IMG/VR virus record: IMGVR_UViG_3300044972_000601
Coordinates: 32,001 to 96,000 of that record
Direction: 5' to 3' (one strand)
Origin: a virus
Length of the DNA stretch: 64,000 nucleotides
In this document: positions 1 to 58,246 of the stretch, piece by piece
Position numbering within the stretch: the stretch's first letter is position 1
Layout of the letters: the number at the start of each line of letters is the position of its first letter
The notes under the pieces: generated by a model
What the model saw: the letters and a program-made list of their open reading frames with translations, nothing else
The model's database searches: none
Told to the model about the DNA's origin: nothing
Translations under genes and position numbers: made by a program

Positions 1-867
1 AAGATCTACAAGACCACTGTAAGGACTCATGCCTGTTGAATATGGGATTTCAATTTGCAATGACTCGAAAGGTTTTGCATAACGTGTTTTCATAATCTTG
101 CAGGCAGCACGAATGCCATGTACTTCGCTTGTCTTAACACCATTTTCATCAGTCTTAAGTTTGAGTTTTTTCATAGCAACAACAATACTAGAAGCATAAA
201 CAAATCCTTGTCCACCACTAATTTTGTCATCTGGATCAAACATGTCTTGGCTTGCGTATGTGTGATTGGTACATACCATACCCACATTATAACTGCCAAA
301 CATATTAACACAATTACGAACTAAACTGGTAAGTGCTTTAGGTTTACGGCCCATGTCTCCCTTCATATCACCAGCTTCGAACTGGTTAATGTCAGTAGGG
401 GTAAGCAACATACCCAATGAGTCTATGACAAATAAGACTTTAGGACGAGTCTCCATTGCTTTGTACTCTTTCATGAACTCACTGATGGTTTTAGCAACAT
501 CATCAATCATAGCCATGTTGAGTTTAAGCAATTTATCTTCACTTGTATCTACACCAAGTGCATGTAGCCATTTTTCGTCAAGTGCATTTTCGCTATCAAT
601 CAAGATAACATAGATACCTTGTTCCTGTGCATTTTTAACAATGTTTGCAGAACAAATGTAGCTCTTACCTGCACCAGATTCACCGGCAAACACAGTAACC
701 TTGCCCAAAGGAATACCCTTGTGAAAGTCGCCACTAATAAGGGAATTCAAGGCATAATTGCCAGTGCCTACCCAGTCTGTAGGATCGTTAAATCCTACAC
801 CCAGACCGTCAATTGACTTAGTCAAGGTTTTTCTAAATTTCGATAAATCGAAGGCTTTTGTAGCCAT
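1..867 (-). CDS. uvsX: RecA/UvsX-like recombinase (3' end runs off the window)
   Basis: Not in the ORF track; translated by hand from ATG at 867: MATKAFDLSKFRK...Walker A GESGAGKS...LIDSENALD...Walker B VIDSLGML...KGDMGRKPKAL...NHTY...SGG. SD GGAG upstream. Confidence 0.93.
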   Translation of the reverse strand, partial: MATKAFDLSKFRKTLTKSIDGLGVGFNDPTDWVGTGNYALNSLISGDFHKGIPLGKVTVFAGESGAGKSYICSANIVKNAQEQGIYVILIDSENALDEKWLHALGVDTSEDKLLKLNMAMIDDVAKTISEFMKEYKAMETRPKVLFVIDSLGMLLTPTDINQFEAGDMKGDMGRKPKALTSLVRNCVNMFGSYNVGMVCTNHTYASQDMFDPDDKISGGQGFVYASSIVVAMKKLKLKTDENGVKTSEVHGIRAACKIMKTRYAKPFESLQIEIPYSTGMSPYSGLVDL

Positions 868-31472: not shown

Positions 31473-32090
31473 TTAAAATACTCTAGAATTTAATATATCA
31501 TCTGCATTTCCAGTGCATCCTTTCCAGAATGTATTAAATGCAATAGTCCTACGTGCTGTATCTAGTTGTGCAGGAAAAACTTGATGTCCAACATTTGACA
31601 ATATCAGTAGCAAATGATTTTTAAGATTATCTTCGGAGCCAGCTAAATCTCTAATTGTTGCTTGTATTTGCTTTTTATACAAATAACAAGGAATCTCTTG
31701 GGAACTAGTATTCATAGCAAAATTTAAATTATCAGGATTATCGTCTAAGTATAATACACCACTGACAACGCTAAATGGGTGTGCGTGGTCTTGATGGCTA
31801 CCGCCTTGCGTGGATCTATTAGCCCACGAGTTAGTAATTTCTATTTTTTCAAATAGATTAACATTGTATGCATTTCTTAAATAGTCCTCGCATTCCTTCT
31901 CTAATGCTTCCTTAATTTCTTTAAATTCAGGTCTATTAAATAAATCTCGATTGATACTTATTTCATTATGTAGATTTTTTGTAAATTCAAGTTTGTCAAA
32001 CTCTGATCTGATGAGATCAAAATCAATCTCATCAGACAAGTCTTTAATTAAAATTAAATTAGTTGACAAATTAAAAAAACTATTCATCAA
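31473..32090 (-). CDS. Putative 2OG-Fe(II) oxygenase (TIGR02466-like)
   Basis: SWAN....GGSHQDHAHPFSVVSGVLYL...H.V.P....RRTIAFN. Confidence 0.75.
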   Translation of the reverse strand: MMNSFFNLSTNLILIKDLSDEIDFDLIRSEFDKLEFTKNLHNEISINRDLFNRPEFKEIKEALEKECEDYLRNAYNVNLFEKIEITNSWANRSTQGGSHQDHAHPFSVVSGVLYLDDNPDNLNFAMNTSSQEIPCYLYKKQIQATIRDLAGSEDNLKNHLLLILSNVGHQVFPAQLDTARRTIAFNTFWKGCTGNADDILNSRVF

Positions 32091-38013: not shown

Positions 38014-39654
38014 TTAAGCATCTTTCCAATAGATAATAGCCATACCAGTACCAGCATTGCTAATTCTCCAATCTAACTCACATGCAGGGTATGCTAAAGC
38101 AGTAACTCCGTCGCCGTTGCAAGTGTTAAACGTACTATTACCATAACAAACGCATAAGATATAGTTTCTAAATACGCCGCCACCACCGCCTTTACCTGCT
38201 TTTGACATCATGGTACAGATTCCTACTCCGCCTGATCCGCCCAATGTTCCTGCACAACTAATAATGTTAGGAAACAACGATTGTGCAAATCTATCTGAGC
38301 AACATACCTTACCTGTCAATCCTAGGCAACATACGAATGGCCAATTTACATATAGTGAATTATTATTGTAATGGAACTGTGTAGCACAGCAAACAAATAC
38401 TACGCCGCCTGTTCCTGCGCCTTCACCTGCATTTGCTGGACGAGTTGTTTGATCTTCTCGTGTTGCCCACAGAATTGACCCGCACCAGTAGTCATTATCC
38501 CTGTGATGGCTTCTACCAGCAGAGCCGGATCCGCACATACTGTGAATGTCGTGCCAGCTGTGAACTATTGGATCTTTACTCGGTGGTGTGTACATAGTAC
38601 ACGACGCATAATTACCGCAATAGAAGCCGATACAATCCCAATCAATACATCCGCCAACACCTGAGTGGTTATCATAGCCACCCCAACCGCCGTGGCCTTC
38701 GATCCAGAATCCGCAGGTACAATTGGTATTGTACATATTTTGGCATTCACAACAAGTGCAAATTTGCCATTTTGTTCCGCCGCCGCCGCCCGCGCTGTTT
38801 GGAAAACAGGCATTACGCTGATGCGGCCCGCCTTGCCCGCCTTGGTTTGCTGAGCCGCACATACAACTGCAAGGGCCGCTACGTACATCTTGTCTAAAGG
38901 TATAACCTACGCCGCCGCCGCCGCCGGCAGTTGCTCCGTGGCCGCCTGATGCGCCGTATATATCAACTGAATTTTGTGCGCCTTGTCCGTTGCCGCCACA
39001 TAAATGTCCCCACCATCCAGCACTTGCACCGCCGGGATAACGTGCATTACAACATTGATCAGAACCGTGGCCTGGAGTTTGGCCAATGCCAACGCCGGCA
39101 ACAACAATACAATACCCGCAGCAAGTTGTTAAAGAAAAACAAATACATGTTCCGCAATAATGGCTGAGAGAACCACCGCAATAGTTACAACCTTTGCCGC
39201 CTGTGCCGCCAATACTATTCCAATCTCCACCAGATGCTGCGCCTGGTGTACAACCGGCTGCTCCGCCGCCGGTTACTGTTCTTGCTACAGCACTTGAGTT
39301 AGTGTAACTTATTGTTGTATCTTGTTCTTGGCGACCAACAACAACCGAAACAACACAGCCTGGGGACACAGTGTCGTAGCGTTCAGCATATCCGCCGCCG
39401 CCGCCTGCATACCCGCAACAAGTTTCTGTACATTTTGGTTTGCCGCCGCCGCCTACTGAAACTACTCGTAAACAAGTAATTCCGGAAGGAACAGTAAATG
39501 AATAGTTACCAGGAGTGTCTAAAATAACTCTATTTTGCCAACAATCGTTGGAACTATAAGAATATTTTTGAGTATTTGACTGATAACAAGTAGTAGATAC
39601 TGCAAGCTGACAACTGTTAGCTTGAGAAGTACCAGTGCTTACATAACGTCCCAT
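38014..39654 (-). CDS. Cys/Gly-rich fibre-tip protein, paralog B
   Basis: PG.YSFTVPSGIT.LRV..VGGGG ... GGGGGYAE ... AG.GMAIIYW glycine-rich tip architecture; about 48 Cys in 546 aa (hand count). Confidence 0.65.
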   Translation of the reverse strand: MGRYVSTGTSQANSCQLAVSTTCYQSNTQKYSYSSNDCWQNRVILDTPGNYSFTVPSGITCLRVVSVGGGGKPKCTETCCGYAGGGGGYAERYDTVSPGCVVSVVVGRQEQDTTISYTNSSAVARTVTGGGAAGCTPGAASGGDWNSIGGTGGKGCNYCGGSLSHYCGTCICFSLTTCCGYCIVVAGVGIGQTPGHGSDQCCNARYPGGASAGWWGHLCGGNGQGAQNSVDIYGASGGHGATAGGGGGVGYTFRQDVRSGPCSCMCGSANQGGQGGPHQRNACFPNSAGGGGGTKWQICTCCECQNMYNTNCTCGFWIEGHGGWGGYDNHSGVGGCIDWDCIGFYCGNYASCTMYTPPSKDPIVHSWHDIHSMCGSGSAGRSHHRDNDYWCGSILWATREDQTTRPANAGEGAGTGGVVFVCCATQFHYNNNSLYVNWPFVCCLGLTGKVCCSDRFAQSLFPNIISCAGTLGGSGGVGICTMMSKAGKGGGGGVFRNYILCVCYGNSTFNTCNGDGVTALAYPACELDWRISNAGTGMAIIYWKDA

Positions 39655-39656
39655 TA

Positions 39657-41354
39657 TTATGCTTCCCTATAATATATAATTGCCATTCCTGTACCTGCAT
39701 TACTGACCATTTGATCTAGTAAGCAAGGAGGAAATGCTAGTGGTGTAGCTGCTGTACCGTTACAGCAATCAAATGCACCGCCCCAACATACACAAAGGAA
39801 TTGACATTTTGCTTGGCCGCCGCCACCGCCTTTGCCGGCTTTGGATGAATATCCGCACCACGACACACCGCCAGAACCGCCTAATGTTCCTGCGCAAGTA
39901 ATAAAGAATGGAAATAATGCATCCTGCATTAACCATGCCTGATCACACCAGCCGCAAACGCCTAACTGGCAAATTTTACACCAGTTAACGTTTGGACTTC
40001 CGCTTGTTCCGCTGTTTGCTCCAGCTGTTGTACCAATCATGTTACCCATCATTAAAGGATTACAGCAAGTAGTAGCAATGCCGCCAGTTCCTGCACCTTC
40101 ACCTGAGTTTCGTGGACGAACTCCGATGAAAAATCCTCTGCAACCGTTAGTGTTTGCTCTACTTGCAACTGTGCCTGGTGCACCAGATCCGGCCATATCG
40201 TGTATATCCCACCATTCTTGTCTTTGAGGGCCTTCTTCGCTACAAGCGTAGCAATGCGTAGTATAGCAGTAAGCAGAACCAAAAGGATACGAACAATATG
40301 CTCCATAACCCCACTCAACGTGCCATGCTTGTGATTCTTTAGGGTTTGCGCCACCACGGCCTCCGTCACCACCTTTCCATACACCAGACATGCAGTCTTG
40401 ACTCGCCCAACTTCTGCATTGTGTTTGTCCTAAACTTGTGCCACCGCCGCCCTGGGCGCTCGGTGGGCAATTTGTACACCAAGTCAAATAAGGAGGAATA
40501 TACTGACACCCCTGCATACAAATACAGTTACAGCAGTTATAATGCCAAGTACAGCCTTGTGCGATCCAGTCGCCAATACCTGCTCCACCACCAACAACTG
40601 CTCCGTGACTTGTGCCGCCGTAGCCGCAAGTACACCAAGATGCGCCGCCACAAGTTGCTAACCAAGAACCTGCGCTTGCACCGCCAACAATATTTGCACT
40701 ACAGCAACCGTTACCGTCATGTCCACCTTCAGTATATTGGTAAACTACACAGTATCCACAACAAGTTGTAACACTAAAACATTTACAACTTCCGCAATAG
40801 TGACTGTAAGAACTTCCGCAATTGTTACAAGAATATCCTGACAAGCCGCCGCAACTATTCCAATCTCCACCTGTAGCAACGCCAGAAACACAGCCAGATG
40901 CTCCGCCTGCTGTGTGAGAAGCAACACCATTACAACTTACTGTTGTATCTTGCTCTTGACGGCCTACTTGGATACAGAAATATGTGGAGCCGCCTGTTAC
41001 TGCGTGATTTTTCTCGCTGTATGCTCCGCCTGAGCCAGCAGCACTTGCGCACGTTGAACCGCTTGCATCAGGCACACTGCCGCATTTTGGTTTGCCGCCG
41101 CCGCCAACAAGAACTGTTCTGGCACAAACTATGCCAGCTGGCACTGTCCAGCAATATGCTCCGGGTTTATCTAAAACTAACTTGTACTGCCAACATTGCT
41201 TGCCGTCGTAACATGCTTTTCCGCCGTAACGTAAGGTTGTGCCATATGCTTGACTTTGTGCAATGCTACCACCCAAACTTGCGGCTGTCATTTTAAATGC
41301 AGCTTGCTTTTCAGAAGTAATACAAGTAGTTAATACTGGTACAAAACGTCCCAT
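39657..41354 (-). CDS. Cys/Gly-rich fibre-tip protein, paralog A
   Basis: Co-linear with 38014..39654 (GGGGKPKC, VGRQEQDTT, GGDWNS, SHYCG.C.CFS.TTCCGYC, CAGTLGGSGGV, SNAGTGMAIIY); about 53 Cys in 565 aa. Confidence 0.65.
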   Translation of the reverse strand: MGRFVPVLTTCITSEKQAAFKMTAASLGGSIAQSQAYGTTLRYGGKACYDGKQCWQYKLVLDKPGAYCWTVPAGIVCARTVLVGGGGKPKCGSVPDASGSTCASAAGSGGAYSEKNHAVTGGSTYFCIQVGRQEQDTTVSCNGVASHTAGGASGCVSGVATGGDWNSCGGLSGYSCNNCGSSYSHYCGSCKCFSVTTCCGYCVVYQYTEGGHDGNGCCSANIVGGASAGSWLATCGGASWCTCGYGGTSHGAVVGGGAGIGDWIAQGCTWHYNCCNCICMQGCQYIPPYLTWCTNCPPSAQGGGGTSLGQTQCRSWASQDCMSGVWKGGDGGRGGANPKESQAWHVEWGYGAYCSYPFGSAYCYTTHCYACSEEGPQRQEWWDIHDMAGSGAPGTVASRANTNGCRGFFIGVRPRNSGEGAGTGGIATTCCNPLMMGNMIGTTAGANSGTSGSPNVNWCKICQLGVCGWCDQAWLMQDALFPFFITCAGTLGGSGGVSWCGYSSKAGKGGGGGQAKCQFLCVCWGGAFDCCNGTAATPLAFPPCLLDQMVSNAGTGMAIIYYREA

Positions 41355-41705: not shown

Positions 41706-44700
41706 TTATCTTAGTAAGAAGTAGTTTAATGCTAAGGGACTACCGTCTATACCCTGTGTAAAGTTAGCTTTATTCTTTATATTTATCTGAGTTCCTGCCG
41801 TGTTACGAATCTGAGATCCTGTAATTTCGATAGTTCCTGCTACCAGCGTATTTACGTTAACTGTGCTGTTGCCGCCGCCAATTTGGCTAGCAACATATGC
41901 CCTGATAGCTTTCTGCGTTGGCACAATCGTATCACTGTTTGCACTGAATGTTGCATCAGTACTGAACTGACTAATACTTGTGTTTGAACTGCCCAATGTA
42001 ACACTACCTAATTGTAATGTTTGTAGGCCGCTCAAGTTAAACGCATTGGCATTCAATGTGGCAATACCTGTTGATTGCTGAACAGTGAACAAGTCGCCCA
42101 CGTTAAAGTTACCGTCTTGGTCAGTACTTGTGTAGAACACACGCCCGCCGCCCGCTTCGACAGTTTCATTTGCTATGTCGGCTGCTTGAAGTGGTGTGTT
42201 TGGATAATTGGTTGTGGCAATTGGGCCGGTACCAATACTCAAGAAGTCGTGTCCAGTTAGTCGAGTTTGACTGTATAATATACGCATTGTGATTGCTACA
42301 CCATGTACTGGTGCAAGTGCAATGGTCATAACAGGACTAATTTGTAATGTAGCACTGTAGTTACCCGGTGTTCCTGTTTGACTACTAACTGTTACCAACT
42401 TGTAGTACGAACTATTGCCTGCAAATTGTATGTTACTACCCAATGTAGGAATAGCAGTCATACCACTTACATTCATGTACTGATTATTTTGGAAAATGTC
42501 AGCATAGCCGCTACCACTGATTGTGGTAGTGGAACTGGTATAGCCAGTGCCGCGATTGGTAAATGTTGGGTTGCCCAAAACGCCTATACCAGTTCTCACT
42601 GTGTACGTGGCCGTTGACGTGGCATTTGGGTCGCCAAGTGTGATTGTTGGAGGAGTAGTGTATCCAGAACCTGGTTCGTAGATTCTAAAACTACTGATCT
42701 GTCCGCTGGTAACAACTGCACGGGCTTCTGCTCGTGTAAAGTTAGGAATACTCAATGCACTTGTACTGCTACTTGCAATAACTGCCCATGTAGGAGCCGC
42801 ACTGGTAATAGTAGTGCTGCCTGTTGAAACAGCATGACTAGTGTCAACTGTCCAAGTACTGCTTGAACCAAACTGTGTTCCAGTCAAGTTAGCAGTGATT
42901 GTTGTGCCAGCAATTACACCAACGCCATTCAACACTGCACCAGTAATAATGCCGCTGCCAGTTGGAGTACTTGTAACAGTTAATGTTGTTCCAGTGATAC
43001 TACCAGTAAAGCTAGTGCTGGTATTACCAAATGTCAAAGCATTCCAAGATGCATTGCTCAGTGTGCGTGGAGTCCAGTTAATGCCATCCGGACTTGTTGC
43101 ACCTGCACCTGCACCTGTTACACTGGTCCAGTTGCCGCCTACATTACTTGAAATAGTAGTAATTGGTGTTAACGTTGCACTTGTACTAACTTGTATCTGA
43201 CTATTAGTCTGATTAATTGAGACAACGTAATATGTTGTGGCTGATGTTAAACCGCCAAATGCAGCACCTGCTGTGATTGCCTGTGTACCAGTAGCAGTTG
43301 TAACTGCCAAATTAGTTCCGCCAAAGCTAGCACTTACTGCTACAGTTGTTGCACTTGGAACTGCTGTGACAAAGTATGTTGTACTATTTGACAAGCCACC
43401 AAATGCTCCCGATACATCAGTTACAAAGCTCTCGCCCACTGCCATGCCAGTAGAAGAATCAACGGTAATCAAATTATTAGTACCGGTTATCAAACCTGGA
43501 GTTGTAACAGTTTGACTTGCGTTCAAAGAATAACTAGATCCAGAAATTGCAATACTACCAGTTGCACCAATGGCAGAACTCACTGTGTATGTGCCTGCAC
43601 CTCCAGAGCCTGAGCCAAGAGCAGTAATATATCCAGTCAAATTATCTAATTTGATAGCATTGTTTTGATAAGAAACATATCCCAATGTGTATGTTAGGCC
43701 AGTTGGAGTACCAATAGTAGTTACCACACCAGTTGTTACGTTAGGATTAACATTGCTGGTTGTGCTCAGTGTGAATGTTGTACGACCATTTGTAGCAATC
43801 ACATAATAAGTAGTTGGATTGGCATAGCTGGTAATAGAGCCAGTGCCGCCCAGTGTGCCACTAATTGTTATAGTCATACCAACCGCAAGAGTTGTTGCAT
43901 CACAATTAAACTGTCCGCCAGTTCCAATAATATTAACATTGGCCAATACGGGCTGTGTTAATGTATAATGTTGACCTGCAAATAGTGTGCCTCCGCCCAC
44001 GGTTGCTGTGGGTGCTGGACTTATGAAATAAGTTCCTGATCCACCAGTGCCTGTGCCGTTAGCAGTAACAAATGATCCTGCACTTACTACGGTTCCGCCA
44101 GCACCAGTTGCACTTGTGGCACTGTCAAATGTACAGATACTTGCTGAACAAGCTGTTACTTTGAATGTGCCGTTAAAGTTGCTGTTGGCATTGCCTGTGA
44201 TTGTGATTGCTTGTCCTGTGGCAAATGGAGCACTTGCTTGTACACTGCTGAATGTAACTGTAGCACTTAATCCGTTACCGTTAACATTATTGATTGCCAA
44301 ACTTTGTGCAACGAAACCGTTTGTCCAGCTGATAACTGTACCCGGAACAACAGTGCCAGAACCCACACCCGATACGTTTAGTGTAATAGGAGTTGCTGTG
44401 ATTGTGGTACTTGTAACTGTCTGACTCAAGTTAACTAACCATGTGCTTGGATTACTGGTTGCAGTACCGCTCAAACCTGCAGAAACATAAGTTCCTCCAG
44501 TAACGCCTGTGCCGCTTATCACATATCCCACAACAATGCCTGTTCCTGATGGAGCACTGGTCACAGACATAATGCCGCCTAGGCCTACATCCGTTGCACT
44601 TACTGGTGCAATGCTGGCAGTAAATGTCACTGCTGTACCGGCTGTGATGCCGCCAAAGAATGAACTTGGTGCTGAAGCAGCAATAGTATAACTGGCTCCT

Positions 44701-47700
44701 GTGATATTAGGACCACTCACATATGCACCAGCCGCTGGAGTTCCAACACTAGTACCTTGCAAACTTAATACGCCGTTCTTAACTTCTGCAAAGTTGTTAG
44801 TAACAACTGGCCCGCTGATAGCCTGTCCAACTGCCACTGTACCTGTTATAGTACCACCAACAGTTAATGTTACACCGCTTACGCTGGAACTTGTACTTGT
44901 AAAACTGTTACTTCCAGTAATATACAATGGCTTGCTGAATACTGTTCCGCCAGATACATATGCAGTAGTTGTTGTGCCTGCAAATGTCACGCTGGTAGCA
45001 GTTGGTTGTCCAGTAACAGTGTAACTGCCATTGTAAGCAATAGGGGCTACACCTTGTAAATCAATAGTTTGACCTGATACAAACGGTACTGGTTTAACAT
45101 AAGTGTATGTTAAGCCAGTTGGAGTTCCTGTAGTTGTAACAACACCAACTGTTGGTACTACGTAAACGCTAGTTGCCGCTGTGCCTGCGGTAAATGTCAA
45201 TGCTGTTCCACCTGGAACAGAACTGATTGTGATACTGGTACTTGCTACGACACTCAACACATAGTAAGGAGTATTAGCAACCAAACCAATTGTTGCCAAG
45301 TTTGCACCTGTAAAGTAAATTGGGATTCCAGCTTGTATATTTGTTGTACTAGCCATTGCCAATGCGGATGTGCCGTTGCCGGTAAATGTTTGGCCTGCTG
45401 CGGCTGTTCCGCCTGACAACTGGAATCCTGTACTGTTATTGTTAGTCTTGTTAATAAAATAAGTTGTTGGATTTGCATAACCAGTAATAGAGCCAGTGCC
45501 GCCCAATGTACCACTAACAGTTACTAGCTGTCCAACTTGCAATGCAGATGCTGTTGCTGTGCAAGTAAATTGCCCGGCTGTTCCTGCAATAACAACTCCA
45601 GTTAATGCTTCTGTTTGTTGAGCATAAGTGACTGTTACTGTTGATCCAGAACCAGTGACACCTGTTACTGCAATGTTTTGTGCAGTTTGTACATTATTAC
45701 CAGTAACAACCATACCTGTAGCAACAGTTCCTTGATTTGCTGACCCAGGTGTTAACACATTGCCAGCACCAGTAATACCTATTGTGCCAGAACTGTTTAA
45801 AGATGCAACTGCTCTTGTAGTAGCTGTTGCGTTAGTAGTTTGACTAGCGACTGTTGGTGTCCACGCTTGCCCTGTTGCCATACCAGCTGTACTGCTTAAA
45901 GTAATTTGATTACTACCAGTGTAGGCTGCTGTAACTGTGGGTGTCAAATAAGCTGCTGTAGCAAGGAACGATCCTTGACCGTAGGCAACATTTTTCCAAG
46001 CATAACTGAATGGTAAAACTGTATTAGGAGTTGTCCAAGTAATACCATCTGTTGAGTATGCTGTTGCTGTGCCGCCCTGGGCAACTGCAACAAATCGGCC
46101 ATTGCCCCATGCAATACTTGTCCAGTATGCTGTTTGTGGTAATGCTCCAGCTGTCCAAGCTGCTCCGTCTACTGAATATGCAGTGGCTTGGCTTAACACA
46201 GTGCCGCCTGTAATAGCAACAAATCGTTCTGGGCCAGTGCCATATGCAACAGCTATGTAGTTAGCGTTGGCAACTGAGCCACCGTTGTTCCAAGATGTGC
46301 CGTTAGCACTGTAAGCTGTTACTGTTCCGTTGCCAACTGCAACAAACCGGCTATTACCATAAGCAACGCTGGTCCATGTTCCAGATTGTAATCCAGTCAT
46401 TGCTGTCCAGCTTGTGCCATTGGTGCTAGAATATGCAACTGTAGTTGCTGCTGTTCCTGCAACTGTTACAAAATAAGTTGTGGCACTTATTGCACCACTT
46501 GCAACTCCAACATATGCACTAGCAGAACTCAAGCCAGTCATTGCACTCCAGTTTGCACCGTCTACGCTGTATGCACTGTTGCCATCACTGGAAGAAACTG
46601 CCACAAAACGGCCGCTTGCATAAGTGGTAGAACTCCAATTTGTTGCAGTTCCTGGCATTGTGCGACTGGTAGTGGCAAAACTTGGAGCAGTAAATGTTAC
46701 CCTTGGTTCAATGCTGTATGTTGTTGTGCTGTCCATTGTTGCACTAATTGCTGTTCCAACAACCACATGATCCCAACCTGCTGCATTTACAATCATTGTA
46801 CTGGCAGTTACATCGGTCAAACCAGTGCTGATTGCAGCACCGCCGCTTGTTGCACTGACTGCAAACTGTGTTGCACTAGTGATGGCCTGTACATAGTAAA
46901 CAGTGGCCACAGCAAAGCCGCCGATTGCAGTGCCTGTAAAGACGATTGGTTGATTAACATACAATGTTAAAGTGCTAGCAACTGTGACCAATGCACCAGT
47001 TGCTGTAACTGCACTGGCTGTCAATGCTGTGAAACTTTCTTTAGCAATGTATGCTTGCTTGCCTCCAGCGTTATAAAATGCAATATAACCAAATTGACCA
47101 ACACCTAGGCCGCTTGTGATTAGTAAACGCATGCCAAGATAGGATGCACTAACCGCAGTATCTGATCCAGCAATAATAATAGTTGTAGTTGTACCGCTTT
47201 GTGCCGTGTTTGTTGCTGATACAAATCCTGCACCAGTAGTTAACATTCTGTTTTCAAATACAGCATTATCACGAACTTCATCACCTACTGCTGTGGCATT
47301 GATGCCGTTTGCACTGTTAAAGGTAAAAGTTGTTCCTGAATTAGGATATGCATTACCAGCATTACTATATTCTAATCTATAGATACTTGCACCGCTGGTG
47401 AATGTATTTCCAACCACTGCTTGAACAGCACGGTTATTAACAGTAGCAGTGATAGGAGTTTCTGAACTGTTAACTCCTTCAGATACGCTGCCAAATTTAC
47501 CGTAAGAGTTGTTGCCGTTGGTGGCACGAATCTTGCCACCGTGTTCTGCAAGATAACCAATGTGTGCGTAGTATGTAAACACCGAAACTAATTCAGCACG
47601 GCCTTGGTTAGTAATCCAAGCACCGATACCATTGTCAATAACTTGTGTAAAGTCGTTGGCAACAATAGATTGATTTCCGCCGTTGTGTAATGCACCATCT

Positions 47701-49958
47701 ACTTTTAGTCCAATTGCACAAGATCCAAATGTAGTGACGTTTTGAATATACGGACTACGGCGTGAAATCCATACGCTAGCATCATCTGGGCCTGCACCTG
47801 GATCTAAACTTGCATATGCACCTGCTGTGGGACGCTGTGTTCCATAACTGTTTGCTGCACCTAGTGTGCCGCTTAATCCTTGCAATGTACAATTACGCAG
47901 GCCAGAGCCGTTTCTCATGTAGAACATATTGCTGGTTGTGTATCCGCTGGAGGGTTGAATTACAGTTGATCGCAATTCGTCGCCAATAATTGCACAGTTT
48001 TCAGGAATACTAATAGGCAGTACTTCGGAATAAACACCAGACTTAACATAAATTGAACTAGTGTATCCTGTCGTTGGCAACGGAATACCAGCTGTGTCTA
48101 CTGCGGTTAATGCGTTAATAACAATATCAAACAATGCTCCTGCCGCAGTTGTTGCACCAGCTTCTGATGTGTAAGACAAGTTAATCACTTGATTAACTGC
48201 TGGAGTATAACTGGTTAATGTTTGGTAGTTAGTACCTGGAGCAGTATTTGTTAATGCATTAGTAACAATATTAATTTTTAATCTTTGTAGCAATGCAATA
48301 ATAAACGGCATTGCTGATGTTGTGGCTGCATTAACAAATGTAGTGGAAGTAGCAAAATACATCATTGTTGCATTTACAGTGTTAGTATTACTTCCACTAC
48401 GTAAATCTTGAGTGATAGCATCTAAAATAATTCTTGAATCACGCAATGTTTTTACACCGTCATATACTGAGCCCGGTGCAAACGGTGCAATACTAGTTGT
48501 TTTAGCATATTCGCCATACTGATACATTTCACGAACGGCCCAGTTAACGTTTTCGCCAAACAAATAGATAGCATTGGGAAATAATGTTCCCGCTGCAACT
48601 TGAGAGCAAGCGTAGGCAATAGTTGCCCATGGCTTGTCAAGTGTTTTACCTTGATCAGTTGCTGCGGTGTCTGTACCACCAACAGCAACATAATAAACAT
48701 TGTTAATATTACCAAATGTGTTCCAGTATAAGTTTGTTCCCTGTACTGTCAACACTTGACCGTCGGTACCGATAGGCAATCTTGCTGGGCCTGCGCCGCT
48801 GTAATATAGCGTGTCGCCTTGTGTTGTTAACACCGCAGTTTCCGATCCAGCAGCCAACAAGTTCCAATAAGTACCAACTAAATCAACAGTTGGTTTGTTT
48901 GTTGCAGTGGCAGCAGTGTGGCCCAACACGCAAACATATGTGTTTACACCATCCTTGATTGAATCCCCAAGTTTATATGCAGTGCCATTTGTCCATGCAC
49001 CTAACCACTGATATCCTGGGTTTAACAATTCCCAGTATGTGCCGTTTGGTGGTTCGTTGTTGGTGTGATCTAGTTTTGATAGATATGTATAACCATTTAA
49101 TCTCACAACATCGCCTACTTTGTAAGCAGTTGCTCCAGACCAGTTGCCAATAAAGTTGAATCCTGTGCTTAACACAGTCCAATACAATGTTGCTGTACTA
49201 GGAGTTTGATTTGTATGATTTTGCAGAGCCACATAACTATAGCCGCCGTATGTAACAACATCGCCTTTTTGGTAAGTTGTTACACCACTCCATGTGCTTT
49301 CAAATTGCAAACCTTCTACAAATATTGCCCATTTGGTATCGTCAAATGTGCCAGCAGATGTGTGGTATGTTGTGCAAATCCATAAATCAGCACCGTACTT
49401 GACAACATCATTAAGTTTGTAACGTGTTGTGCCTGACCAGTCTGTTTTATAGTCAAAACTTCTGTTGACTAAATCCCAAGATGATGTATCACCTTCTAAT
49501 CCTATTGAAGTAGATTGGCTAGTATGTGCGGCATTACAAATGTAAACCGATGCTCCGTACTTGACAACATCTCCAACTTTGTATGTTGTAGTTTGTGACC
49601 AAGATCCAGTCCAATTAAATGCACTGGCAAACAGTGTCCAGTTGCTTTGATTTGTTTCTAATGTAGTACTGCTGGTATGACCTGTGTTACAAATATAAAC
49701 GCGGCCGCCATATTGCACAAGGTCATTAATATTGTAATATGTAGGAGTGGTCCAAGTGCCTCTCCATGTTTGGCCGTCGGCGGTAATGTTCCACTTTGAT
49801 GCTAAATCAGTATAAAAATCTGCCGAGCTTGTGTGCCCTGTGGTACAAATATATACTTTACCACTAACTCTAACTACGTCGTCTTTTACGTATGTGGTAG
49901 TTCCCGCCCAGACACCTTTCCAGACAAATCTAATCCTACCTAATTTAAACTCTGCCAT
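41706..49958 (-). CDS. Giant tail fibre/baseplate-associated protein (2750 aa)
   Basis: N-terminal W.G.W...T.Y..DVV.YG repeats, a beta-helix-like core, propeller-type W.SVAYG.GRFVAV repeats and many inserted beta domains; paralog of 50003..53677; GATAAATA at 49985-92. Confidence 0.8.
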   Translation of the reverse strand: MAEFKLGRIRFVWKGVWAGTTTYVKDDVVRVSGKVYICTTGHTSSADFYTDLASKWNITADGQTWRGTWTTPTYYNINDLVQYGGRVYICNTGHTSSTTLETNQSNWTLFASAFNWTGSWSQTTTYKVGDVVKYGASVYICNAAHTSQSTSIGLEGDTSSWDLVNRSFDYKTDWSGTTRYKLNDVVKYGADLWICTTYHTSAGTFDDTKWAIFVEGLQFESTWSGVTTYQKGDVVTYGGYSYVALQNHTNQTPSTATLYWTVLSTGFNFIGNWSGATAYKVGDVVRLNGYTYLSKLDHTNNEPPNGTYWELLNPGYQWLGAWTNGTAYKLGDSIKDGVNTYVCVLGHTAATATNKPTVDLVGTYWNLLAAGSETAVLTTQGDTLYYSGAGPARLPIGTDGQVLTVQGTNLYWNTFGNINNVYYVAVGGTDTAATDQGKTLDKPWATIAYACSQVAAGTLFPNAIYLFGENVNWAVREMYQYGEYAKTTSIAPFAPGSVYDGVKTLRDSRIILDAITQDLRSGSNTNTVNATMMYFATSTTFVNAATTSAMPFIIALLQRLKINIVTNALTNTAPGTNYQTLTSYTPAVNQVINLSYTSEAGATTAAGALFDIVINALTAVDTAGIPLPTTGYTSSIYVKSGVYSEVLPISIPENCAIIGDELRSTVIQPSSGYTTSNMFYMRNGSGLRNCTLQGLSGTLGAANSYGTQRPTAGAYASLDPGAGPDDASVWISRRSPYIQNVTTFGSCAIGLKVDGALHNGGNQSIVANDFTQVIDNGIGAWITNQGRAELVSVFTYYAHIGYLAEHGGKIRATNGNNSYGKFGSVSEGVNSSETPITATVNNRAVQAVVGNTFTSGASIYRLEYSNAGNAYPNSGTTFTFNSANGINATAVGDEVRDNAVFENRMLTTGAGFVSATNTAQSGTTTTIIIAGSDTAVSASYLGMRLLITSGLGVGQFGYIAFYNAGGKQAYIAKESFTALTASAVTATGALVTVASTLTLYVNQPIVFTGTAIGGFAVATVYYVQAITSATQFAVSATSGGAAISTGLTDVTASTMIVNAAGWDHVVVGTAISATMDSTTTYSIEPRVTFTAPSFATTSRTMPGTATNWSSTTYASGRFVAVSSSDGNSAYSVDGANWSAMTGLSSASAYVGVASGAISATTYFVTVAGTAATTVAYSSTNGTSWTAMTGLQSGTWTSVAYGNSRFVAVGNGTVTAYSANGTSWNNGGSVANANYIAVAYGTGPERFVAITGGTVLSQATAYSVDGAAWTAGALPQTAYWTSIAWGNGRFVAVAQGGTATAYSTDGITWTTPNTVLPFSYAWKNVAYGQGSFLATAAYLTPTVTAAYTGSNQITLSSTAGMATGQAWTPTVASQTTNATATTRAVASLNSSGTIGITGAGNVLTPGSANQGTVATGMVVTGNNVQTAQNIAVTGVTGSGSTVTVTYAQQTEALTGVVIAGTAGQFTCTATASALQVGQLVTVSGTLGGTGSITGYANPTTYFINKTNNNSTGFQLSGGTAAAGQTFTGNGTSALAMASTTNIQAGIPIYFTGANLATIGLVANTPYYVLSVVASTSITISSVPGGTALTFTAGTAATSVYVVPTVGVVTTTGTPTGLTYTYVKPVPFVSGQTIDLQGVAPIAYNGSYTVTGQPTATSVTFAGTTTTAYVSGGTVFSKPLYITGSNSFTSTSSSVSGVTLTVGGTITGTVAVGQAISGPVVTNNFAEVKNGVLSLQGTSVGTPAAGAYVSGPNITGASYTIAASAPSSFFGGITAGTAVTFTASIAPVSATDVGLGGIMSVTSAPSGTGIVVGYVISGTGVTGGTYVSAGLSGTATSNPSTWLVNLSQTVTSTTITATPITLNVSGVGSGTVVPGTVISWTNGFVAQSLAINNVNGNGLSATVTFSSVQASAPFATGQAITITGNANSNFNGTFKVTACSASICTFDSATSATGAGGTVVSAGSFVTANGTGTGGSGTYFISPAPTATVGGGTLFAGQHYTLTQPVLANVNIIGTGGQFNCDATTLAVGMTITISGTLGGTGSITSYANPTTYYVIATNGRTTFTLSTTSNVNPNVTTGVVTTIGTPTGLTYTLGYVSYQNNAIKLDNLTGYITALGSGSGGAGTYTVSSAIGATGSIAISGSSYSLNASQTVTTPGLITGTNNLITVDSSTGMAVGESFVTDVSGAFGGLSNSTTYFVTAVPSATTVAVSASFGGTNLAVTTATGTQAITAGAAFGGLTSATTYYVVSINQTNSQIQVSTSATLTPITTISSNVGGNWTSVTGAGAGATSPDGINWTPRTLSNASWNALTFGNTSTSFTGSITGTTLTVTSTPTGSGIITGAVLNGVGVIAGTTITANLTGTQFGSSSTWTVDTSHAVSTGSTTITSAAPTWAVIASSSTSALSIPNFTRAEARAVVTSGQISSFRIYEPGSGYTTPPTITLGDPNATSTATYTVRTGIGVLGNPTFTNRGTGYTSSTTTISGSGYADIFQNNQYMNVSGMTAIPTLGSNIQFAGNSSYYKLVTVSSQTGTPGNYSATLQISPVMTIALAPVHGVAITMRILYSQTRLTGHDFLSIGTGPIATTNYPNTPLQAADIANETVEAGGGRVFYTSTDQDGNFNVGDLFTVQQSTGIATLNANAFNLSGLQTLQLGSVTLGSSNTSISQFSTDATFSANSDTIVPTQKAIRAYVASQIGGGNSTVNVNTLVAGTIEITGSQIRNTAGTQINIKNKANFTQGIDGSPLALNYFLLR

Positions 49959-57205: not shown

Positions 57206-58246
57206 TTATTGATCAAAACCATGCAATACAGTTACTGGTTTTCCTGGTGGAACTGGGCTACTAAATTGCAAGTACCAACCATCTCCAATCTGTGAAGGGT
57301 TGGCAATAGTAATGGCGGTTCCTGCAACAATTGGAGATCCAGTAATTGGATTACTAATATCAATGCTGGTCAATGCACCAGTTGCTAGGTCTGTAGTATA
57401 TTCCACTAATGTTGTAAGTGCTGGAATACCAGTTCCAGATACTGCGGCACCAGTAAGATCCATTGCTGGATAAATTGTATTAATACTTGTAATTGTGCCT
57501 GCCACAGTTTGAGATCCAGTAGTGGTATTCATATAACTTACTGAAGTTGTATTGCAATTAGTTACAACTGCTTCTCCGTTATATCCGTAAGGTGTCATTC
57601 CAGTTACTAGTATAGTTTCGCCTATTGAAAATGGTGCAGCTGGTTGTGCGGCAAATGTTAAGGTTGCAGTAGTAGTTGAACCACTTGCACCAGTTGTTTG
57701 TAAACTGGTATTAAAATATAATCTAGTTGCAGTTACAAGTTCAGTTCTACTAAGGGTGCCGTTATAAGTTTCTGCACTAAAAGTTGGATTTTGTTCAACC
57801 AAATAATTTGTAGTATGCAATTGAATTACATTTTCAACAATTACTAACAAGTTAGCACCTGTCCATGTATACCCGCGTTGTGCGGTAACAGCATACGGTG
57901 ACGGACTTAACGGCCCAAAGTATACAGTGTCGCCGTCGCCTACTCCAAGAGTTTGTTGAGTAATTTCACCAGATTCTCTATAGCGTAATGCACGCCAAGT
58001 ACTACCTTGATACACTTCTATATCAAGTGTTGTTTCGTTATATCGCATCATTCCATTTTGCGGAACAACCGGGCGTTCGTTATCAACATCGCCAAAACCA
58101 CCAGACGGCACAGTATCATCACCAAGGCCGTTGGGCAACTTTAATGCTGTACGAGAGTCCATTATTACAGAACCGTTCGTATCAACATACAGTGTGTTAT
58201 CGTAAACTGCTCTACGATTTAAAGTTTGTCGTCTTAAATATCTCAT
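57206..58246 (-). CDS. Virion structural protein
   Basis: RP..PQNGMMRYNET...EVYQG..W module; GDG.T..FGPL; V.VENV.Q; inserted beta domains. Confidence 0.65.
   Translation of the reverse strand: MRYLRRQTLNRRAVYDNTLYVDTNGSVIMDSRTALKLPNGLGDDTVPSGGFGDVDNERPVVPQNGMMRYNETTLDIEVYQGSTWRALRYRESGEITQQTLGVGDGDTVYFGPLSPSPYAVTAQRGYTWTGANLLVIVENVIQLHTTNYLVEQNPTFSAETYNGTLSRTELVTATRLYFNTSLQTTGASGSTTTATLTFAAQPAAPFSIGETILVTGMTPYGYNGEAVVTNCNTTSVSYMNTTTGSQTVAGTITSINTIYPAMDLTGAAVSGTGIPALTTLVEYTTDLATGALTSIDISNPITGSPIVAGTAITIANPSQIGDGWYLQFSSPVPPGKPVTVLHGFDQ

Follow-up and report, generated by a model that had tools for sequence, protein, structure and literature searches.

How can one of two paralogous phage fibre proteins come to carry 1,315 additional residues at a single point, with recognisable scaffold resuming directly afterwards? 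The question is raised by a 64,000-nucleotide (nt) stretch of viral DNA, positions 32,001 to 96,000 of the IMG/VR virus record IMGVR_UViG_3300044972_000601 (the window), in which the open reading frame (ORF) of a giant fibre, P0001, lies with its shorter paralog, P0002, directly upstream of it. A reading of the letters without database searches (the original prediction) had proposed that the giant fibre grows by domains inserted inside domains. Here, with a probability of about 0.85, we arrive at the reading that the domains of P0001 are nested in the loops of other domains, forming a tree that grows from one scaffold point and is displayed as a probable host-surface binding module. The deepest branch runs from the scaffold through a propeller, a barrel termed C0, a probable D-type domain (D1) and three barrels, A, B and C, that is, five insertions, or six if the probable D1 level is counted.

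The giant fibre and its paralog

The source assembly of the window is one 108-kb contig of an uncultured T4-like phage, and the window also encodes a T4-type tail sheath and virion proteins; megablast against the phage collection returned no near DNA match. The PHROG 9851 'tail fiber protein' profile matches over the scaffold of both P0001 (E 2.7e-188) and P0002 (E 1.3e-176), and both proteins carry CBM_5_12 repeats at the N-terminus, seven of them in P0001. P0001 is probably a virion fibre, with a scaffold that joins CBM5/12-like repeats to a beta-rich body and a C-terminal part. The closest relatives with a name, at 30-38% identity by tblastn, are tail-fibre-like proteins of Synechococcus phage S-CAM1, Prochlorococcus phage P-SSM2 and Pelagibacter phage Mosig.

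Global alignment of the two paralogs (55% identity, 1,172 columns) leaves three stretches of P0001 unpaired, namely residues 457-632, 976-1059 and 1093-2407, the last as one uninterrupted gap of 1,315 amino acids (aa), in keeping with the roughly 1,300 aa of inserted sequence noticed originally; the motifs quoted at that time were all found in place. The scaffold motif EPRVTF begins at residue 1084 of P0001 and RAEARAVVTSG at 2409, and in P0002 the same motifs (867-872 and 880-890) are 7 residues apart. P0002 and the IMG/VR relative L058 have 7-13 residues where P0001 carries 1,315, and many relatives have about 290-305 between the scaffold flanks. Within the same fibre family, L058, L034 and L042-L055 show 13 residues (no propeller), about 300, or up to 620-670 between two scaffold motifs.

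A propeller at one scaffold point

The extra part of P0001 is a seven-bladed Asp-box beta-propeller, a fold seen on the predicted model of its colinear homolog L001, in which the propeller is uninterrupted and aligns blade for blade with P0001 when the P0001 inserts are left out. The AlphaFold2 (AF2) model of L001 residues 780-1260 has a mean predicted local distance difference test score (pLDDT) of 81.7 and a predicted template modelling score (pTM) of 0.80. Its positions 96..393 match virginiamycin B lyase (2z2n_A; Z 31.2, root-mean-square deviation (rmsd) 2.3, 277/293 aligned), many WD40-type non-enzymatic seven-bladed propellers match at Z 24-27, and the top Foldseek match is Ycf48 (5ojr_D, E 4.1e-9). 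P0001 itself contains six matches to the Asp-box (S-x-D-x-G-x-x-W), at 1131, 1177, 1217, 1262, 1302 and 2288, which, together with the L001 model, bears out the propeller-type repeat of the original prediction. Among curated BNR and sialidase models, Pfam gave no match to the P0001 propeller; matches below threshold were confined to DUF6242 (17 bits, cut-off 29) and, in P0052, to KIB1-4 (15.9 bits, cut-off 27.4).

The propeller is itself divided. The motif WKNVAYGQGSFLA occupies residues 1321-1333 and ATSPDGINW follows only at 2287, with an insert of 947 aa between blades 6 and 7, close to the 945 aa first estimated. The same junction measures 2 residues in P0049, P0050, P0064 and P0067, is uninterrupted in L001, and spans approximately 600-1,705 residues in homologs with an insert of the same type.

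A split barrel frames the 947-residue insert

Self-BLAST of the whole of P0001 yielded nothing usable, and fragment BLAST gave many weak matches driven by Thr, Ser and Gly, so BLAST was replaced by hidden Markov models (HMMs) with shuffled controls. HMMs for repeat types A, B, C and D were built iteratively on 75 homologs. Intact domain copies score 70-96 bits, compared with maxima of 5.4 bits (full models) and 7.0 bits (half models) in 50 composition-shuffled copies of the region. The HMMs of B and C recognise each other's domains with E between 1e-17 and 1e-22, which places both in one family, termed K; the initial description of B and C as separate kinds of domain is therefore not upheld. 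Pfam, a PDB sequence search and megablast against phages gave no match for the insert, and PF16190 (FCCH) had no match at E<=10, either to P0001 or to the 947-aa insert alone; in the homolog P0074, PF16190 scores 26.2 bits, below its cut-off of 29.5.

Both ends of the 947-aa insert match pieces of the K model (Table 1), which indicates that the insert is a K barrel in its own right, termed C0 and interrupted at the beta2-beta3 loop. Inserts of this type, down to about 40% identity, nearly all open with 'LTP...GSNQITLSSTAGMATGQ.W.PT' (exceptions P0057, P0058 and P0061) and close with 'FGGLTSGTTYYV...NQI.VSTS.TLTPI', the C-part of C0, which is kept at the end of the listed large blade 6/7 inserts other than extra propeller blades. 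The C0 interior of about 855 residues is variable among homologs. None of the proteins retrieved has an uninterrupted C0. The sliced N-half HMM missed the C0 N-part in the full protein, and its 16.4 bits come from the full HMM on the isolated segment.

In support of this arrangement, residues 1084-1372 and 2226-2420 were folded as two separate chains (ESMFold2, self-made alignment), and the sequence on either side of the 855-residue interior is predicted to join into one fold. The interaction prediction score from aligned errors (ipSAE) was 0.92 (runs 0.91, 0.92 and 0.93), compared with 0.47 for the best of 3 controls; 58 of 80 solved complexes attain the mark used, as do 2 of 110 mismatched pairs, counts that are rough given the self-made alignment. 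The runs share >=94% of contacts, with partner pLDDT >=86. Contacts of lowest error link the end of blade 6 to the start of blade 7 (1331-1335 with 2285-2289) and the two C0 pieces to each other (1352-1354 with 2253-2256; 1362-1367 with 2243-2245), the latter two of which we read as putative beta1-beta4 and beta2-beta3 pairs, respectively. A further lowest-error contact, 1088-1113 with 2388-2411, marks the return to the scaffold, and ring closure in P0001 itself is predicted from it.

Barrels within barrels

Deep inside what is here termed C0, the original prediction had described domain A as split by domain B and B as split by domain C, and both splits are recovered here: the A pieces align at 1440-1448 and 1623-1649, the B pieces at 1459-1515 and 1605-1619, and C from 1537. 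The N-part of the split barrel B1 matches the intact copy B2 with a BLAST E of 5.6e-21, and the two B pieces joined as a chimera score 91.9 bits against 83.6 for the contiguous reading (1453-1540). The split is also visible in the DNA, where the B copies share a repeat before C (66 nt, 86% identity, spacing 1,653 nt) and another after C (51 nt, 82% identity, spacing 1,416 nt); the difference between the two spacings is 237 nt, or 79 codons in frame, which is near the size of C.

An AF2 model of P0001 residues 1240-2420 (1,181 residues) has a mean pLDDT of 43.9, rising to 74-87 over model positions 210-380 (P0001 1449-1619). Searched against 48,161 chains, model 277..364 (domain C) by itself gives barrel matches over 75-78 aligned residues (9jlf_E, Z 7.2, rmsd 2.6, 78 aligned; the FCCH region of E1 in 4p22_B, Z 5.9, rmsd 2.9, 75 aligned). 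The 177-residue span 208..384, by contrast, aligns 72-80 residues to compact one-domain barrels and skips 277..364: EF-Tu domain 2 (5i4q_C 209..296; Z 6.3, rmsd 2.6, 72 aligned), the FCCH domain of UBA1 (9mc4_A 214..297; Z 5.9, rmsd 3.4, 80 aligned) and the phi92 endosialidase barrel (4hiz_A 255..339; Z 5.8, rmsd 2.5, 72 aligned). Such matches are to be expected if the two B pieces were to form one barrel around C. The barrel matches to FCCH, EF-Tu domain 2, FNR-type and phage barrels all lie at Z 5.8-7.2, and a Z below 8 may reflect only a common arrangement.

Homologs as intermediate stages

Homologs lacking one insert with its flanks conserved were found for C, for B, for the A module, for the 947-aa insert, for D4 (a D-type domain in blade 7) and for the propeller. 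For the A[B[C]] block they form a graded series at a single site. P0046 has no A module and reads 'GMVISGSGVSGTPYITGSNTFTSTGSS' at the conserved-flank site. An uninterrupted A ('SLLTITYATQSAVPFVTGQ...') is present in P0019, P0023 and P0035, where the leader strand and beta1 continue straight into '..PF..GQ' and to which the A1 core of P0001 is orthologous. P0017 and P0018 carry A[B], with B between '...TYxxQ' and 'P.PF' and without C. P0001 and its close relatives carry A[B[C]], with C between 'FQLS' and 'GVVTT.GTPTGLTYT'. C within B is found by alignment in P0001, P0008, P0011 and P0013-P0015, and by BLAST also in P0003-P0007, P0009, P0010, P0012 and P0016; B within A is seen only down to about 65% identity. 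Assignment of the strand 'TVTVTYAQQ' to an upstream D-type domain or to an extended B was considered and is rejected, as the strand enters the A core in P0019, P0023 and P0035.

The A module itself probably sits in D1, as suggested by the 14.1-bit D half-domain match before it and by P0046, in which 'TPYITGSNTFTSTGSS' directly follows the D1 N-part. The at least four nesting levels first proposed are indeed nested, and their depth was undercounted, with the C0 and D1 levels missed. Of the copies described as intact further along the protein, B (2012-2091) is so; A (1898-1935) was located as described and probably lies inside a D-type domain. Neither a purely sequential order of domains nor halves that fail to align with the intact copies was found, and the out-and-back chain with in-frame loop insertions proposed at the outset is supported by three independent lines: the homologs lacking single inserts, the aligned ranges of B[C] and the two-chain fold.

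The homologs also differ in where they vary. In P0011-P0013 the scaffold is 86-94% identical to that of P0001, compared with only 61-63% for the interior of the insert, which suggests a mosaic in which the interior alone may have been exchanged or evolved fast.

Self-nesting of K-type barrels

Nesting of K barrels is not confined to B1. At the position of the intact barrel C2, P0017 and P0011 carry C[B], or K[K], and P0018 carries C[B[B]], or K[K[K]]. Barrel B2 is carried by 423 cluster representatives at E<=0.001 among 1.84 billion proteins. In P0079, one of the proteins retrieved, a full K barrel stands between five N-halves and six C-halves in balanced-bracket order, and bracket-ordered halves occur likewise in P0076, P0094 and P0093 (B2 search), P0055, P0073 and P0047. 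An automated bracket parser left many C-halves unmatched because the short N-halves scored below threshold, so that its depth numbers are rough. In the metagenome proteins P0079, P0076, P0055 and P0073, which have at least five N-halves of the K barrel followed by a full barrel and a like number of C-halves, self-nesting is deeper than in P0001.

Across the K family, most N-halves stop at model positions 31-41 and most C-halves begin at 21-33, which points to the beta2-beta3 loop as the usual insertion site. P0001 uses three different loops: that between beta1 and beta2 in A, that between beta2 and beta3 in C0 and that between beta4 and beta5 in B. Perhaps the K-type barrel is a self-propagating module that copies itself by recombination, preferentially into its own beta2-beta3 loop, although we regard this as a speculative and on the whole unlikely account.

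Further domains and genomic setting

Beyond those described originally, three further inserts were detected, at 457-632, 976-1059 and 2316-2394 (Table 1). The first is flanked by 'ACSQVAAGT' and 'IYVKSGVYSE' where the beta-rich body begins and, unlike the barrels, is not rich in Thr and Ser. The second, a K-type barrel, is missing from P0002 and L001. The third, D4, is a 91% gap in P0035-42, is missing from L001 and is almost absent from the predicted two-chain interface, which is what a separate excursion would give. A second split D-type domain, D0, tentatively encloses residues 1728-2107; in P0018, D halves matching HMM positions 1-37 and 37-77 lie 380 aa apart. Judged by eye, the 'intact' A2 probably splits D3, tentatively with the same flank pattern as D1[A1].

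Table 1. Features of the giant fibre P0001 and its paralog. Positions are those of the window; residue i of P0001 corresponds to nt 49958-3(i-1).
Feature	Residues	Position	Strand	Evidence and remarks
Giant fibre ORF P0001	2,750 aa	41706..49958	(-)	End coordinate takes in stop codon
Paralog P0002	1,224 aa	50003..53677	(-)	Scaffold without propeller or inserts; comparison sequence
Scaffold insert	457-632 (176 aa)	48063..48590	(-)	Absent in P0002; 99% gap in P0019-21
K-type barrel in scaffold	976-1059	46782..47033	(-)	Between 'KESF' and 'AGWDHVV'; HMM C 71, B 63.5 bits
Propeller blades 1-6	1093-1336	45951..46682	(-)	Five Asp-box motifs (S.DG..W); colinear with L001
C0 N-part ('GSNQITLSSTAGMATGQAWTPT', beta1-beta2)	1337-1371	45846..45950	(-)	16.4 bits, HMM positions 2-29
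D1 N-part (D-type, probable host of A module)	1396-1424	45687..45773	(-)	Dn HMM 14.1 bits, shuffle maximum 7.0
Barrel A1 leader strand and beta1 ('STVTVTYAQQ')	1425-1448	45615..45686	(-)	
Barrel B1 N-part (beta1-beta4, ends 'FQLS')	1449-1515	45414..45614	(-)	81 bits, HMM positions 1-61
Barrel C1 (innermost domain, B family)	1516-1603	45150..45413	(-)	54.6-64 bits; absent in P0017, P0018
Barrel B1 C-part (hairpin 'GVVTTTGTPTGLTYT')	1604-1622	45093..45149	(-)	
Barrel A1 core ('PVPFVSGQTIDLQG..YNGSYTVT')	1623-1679	44922..45092	(-)	Ac HMM 68.9 bits
D1 return strand ('PLYITGSNSFTSTSSS')	1680-1692	44883..44921	(-)	Aligned to P0046 'TPYITGSNTFTSTGSS'
D0 N-half (second split D-type, tentative)	1693-1727	44778..44882	(-)	Dn 10.2 bits
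Intact D-type D2	1778-1865	44364..44627	(-)	79.4 bits; BLAST E 2e-16 to D4
D-type D3	1866-1996	43971..44363	(-)	A2 (1895-1961) 70.4 bits; D pieces 7.0 and 9.8
Intact barrel B2	2007-2092	43683..43940	(-)	95.5 bits
D0 C-half (tentative)	2108-2150	43509..43637	(-)	Dc 6.8 and 12.2 bits, shuffle maximum 4.1
Intact K-type barrel C2	2157-2227	43278..43490	(-)	57 bits
C0 C-part ('AFGGLTSATTYYV..NSQIQVSTSATLTPI')	2228-2283	43110..43277	(-)	33.3 bits, HMM positions 27-71
Blade 7 first part (Asp-box 'TSPDGINW', 'WNALTFGNTS')	2284-2315	43014..43109	(-)	L001 alignment; 2285-2289 contact 1331-1335
D-type D4 in blade 7 hairpin	2316-2394	42777..43013	(-)	82.1 bits
Blade 7 last strand and exit ('PTWAVIASS..IPNF')	2395-2408	42735..42776	(-)	2388-2411 contact 1088-1113
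Scaffold resumes ('RAEARAVVTSG...')	2409-2750	41709..42734	(-)	Aligned to P0002 from residue 880 on

Immediately downstream of the giant fibre, two ORFs (546 and 565 aa; 38014-41354, (-) strand) have almost no PHROG match. Of the four domain types, a single copy occurs elsewhere on the 108-kb contig, in just one other ORF (57206-58246, (-) strand), which encodes a 346-aa protein outside all PHROG families with one A-type barrel at residues ~191-255 (67.7 bits).

Discussion

Taken as a path, the proposed tree would have the chain leave the scaffold after EPRVTFTAP and form six blades of the seven-bladed propeller, then make the first two strands of the six-stranded barrel C0 and exit at its beta2-beta3 loop. 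It would next run through some 855 residues of barrels and D-type domains before returning to complete C0, then complete blade 7, with that blade's own D-type domain, and re-enter the scaffold. Each level would probably be an in-frame insertion of a whole domain with its two ends close together, and such adjacent ends would leave the host domain still able to fold. Nesting of this kind would keep the scaffold's own ends in place and give each joint two covalent links; it may be favoured precisely because modules can be added without moving the scaffold ends.

Several observations weigh against parts of this reading. The HMM for A scores slightly higher on the contiguous sequence 1608-1680 (86.4 bits) than on the chimera (83.7 bits), so that beta1 of A is not assignable by HMM score and is decided by the homolog series. 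D1, D0 and D3 draw on weak half-domain scores of 7-14 bits. The AF2 model of residues 1240-2420 is uninformative for the propeller blades, the D domains, 1650-2000 and 2090-2284, and the joining of the B pieces is read from aligned ranges at Z 5.8-7.2, values that are middling by the tool's own note. The two-chain pass is a statement of model confidence and could partly reflect memory of the common propeller fold. Furthermore, the propeller may lie either inside one scaffold domain or between two.

The slightly better contiguous score for A, together with a B model that can be forced through 1453-1540 at 83.6 bits and a Thr/Ser/Gly-rich sequence in which weak matches abound, would also suit a chain of strictly sequential domains, whose 'halves' are short independent repeats or linkers resembling parts of barrels. 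We consider this very improbable, because homologs lack single inserts at conserved flanks, the DNA repeat spacings differ by 237 nt, the structure-match ranges fit a split B and the two-chain fold joins both sides of the interior. Halves also follow bracket order in unrelated proteins, and five N-halves followed by six C-halves represent 1 of 462 possible arrangements. Still harder to credit is that the assembler produced the giant ORF as a chimera, by collapsing or joining repeats: the ORF does come from a single 108-kb contig, and repeat-rich genes are prone to misassembly, but eight metagenome clusters (from ENA, JGI and Logan), all 2,749-2,752 aa long, are 85-94% identical to P0001 with 100% coverage of 1084-2420, and its internal DNA repeats are all short, none exceeding 66 nt or 86% identity. 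Homologs are located on metagenome contigs of up to 356 kb.

A weightier question is the direction of change. A deeply nested ancestor could have given rise to the shorter homologs by precise deletion of inner domains: the series is unrooted, deletion between homologous barrels would be easy with B and C in one family, and P0018 is without C in B1 yet has extra barrels elsewhere. Nevertheless, a nested topology needs one insertion per level at some point, and the innermost inserts have the narrowest distribution (C within B in the closest clade only, B within A to about 65% identity), which fits late gain. The split points and the presence or absence of each insert can be read directly from the proteins, with the joining of the pieces seen in predicted folds; for the individual steps we infer insertion, and hold loss to be the rather less likely course.

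What such a tree is for can be approached from its parts. FCCH-type six-stranded closed barrels face outward on siphophage tail tubes (PMC13576161), and in the K1F endosialidase the sialidase-type beta-propeller and the beta-barrel both hold sialic-acid sites (bioRxiv 10.1101/2025.10.06.680778). These two precedents favour binding to the host surface, probably to a glycan, and the lower identity of the interior compared with the scaffold in P0011-P0013 is the pattern expected of a host-range part. An outward module for binding the host surface, probably its glycans, and setting host range may thus be what the tree provides, a proposal to which we give about even odds. Its chief functional competitor, which appears distinctly unlikely, holds that the propeller is enzymatic, a glycosidase or lyase cutting a host surface polymer in the manner of endosialidase tailspikes, with the barrels as substrate-binding modules, so that the tree would be more than an adhesin. 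The Asp-box propeller is a fold typical of sialidases and further glycosidases (PMC2716378), the L001 propeller model finds its best structural match in a lyase, and barrel B matches the endosialidase barrel of phi92. Against this, Pfam matches to sialidase, BNR and lyase families are all absent, no catalytic residues were identified (no sialidase active-site alignment was attempted), non-enzymatic seven-bladed propellers match in number, and P0002 and L058 are entirely without a propeller.

Among known phage proteins, the endosialidase tailspikes of K1F and phi92 resemble P0001 in being fibres or spikes that combine a propeller with a small barrel. In these enzymes the barrel is reportedly inserted within the propeller, as a single insertion level, and the catalytic propeller is said to be six-bladed. 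P0001 differs from them in showing no sequence similarity and no enzyme signature. The P0001 barrel may resemble the FCCH type, as its structural matches include tail-tube or connector proteins (9jlf_E, 9n71_B) and E1 chains (4p22_B, 9mc4_A), whereas the barrels on tail tubes are fused end to end at a terminus and are not nested. Fibre-like proteins of S-CAM1, P-SSM2 and S-SSM7, along with Mosig, belong to the same scaffold family (PHROG 9851) and are distant, covering about two thirds of P0002.

The closest parallel for depth is cellular. Si3, in the trigger loop of the cyanobacterial RNA polymerase beta' subunit (RpoC2), has discontinuous domains SBHM-2 to -5 (PMC10895346), and a 2026 survey of 2.7 million classified domains gives Si3, with six-level nesting, as its example of complex nesting (PMC13114784). 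As in P0001, a small beta domain has been inserted repeatedly into its own copies, and domains are built from distant pieces of the chain. Si3 is made of a sandwich-barrel hybrid motif and belongs to a cellular enzyme, in contrast to the putatively FCCH- or EF-Tu-domain-2-like barrel of a virion protein; the tree in P0001, moreover, combines a propeller with barrels of two families and a D-type domain, and its homologs keep intermediate stages. We found no published account of such nesting in a phage fibre in a literature of which our coverage is incomplete. Nested insertion is thus of a known kind, and what is new here is the mix of domain types in one tree, the intermediates among homologs and the offset at the DNA level.

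Deep domain nesting is rare, and a virion protein here reaches five to six levels with mixed folds. The homolog series offers a natural set in which to study how a complete domain can enter a loop in frame and what makes some loops receptive. For protein design, the split sites point to barrel and propeller loops that tolerate inserts of ~80 to >1,000 residues. If the K-type barrel does propagate itself, out-and-back stalks with double links would be built to any length, and phages could lengthen, branch and re-tip their host-recognition fibres with the scaffold left untouched.

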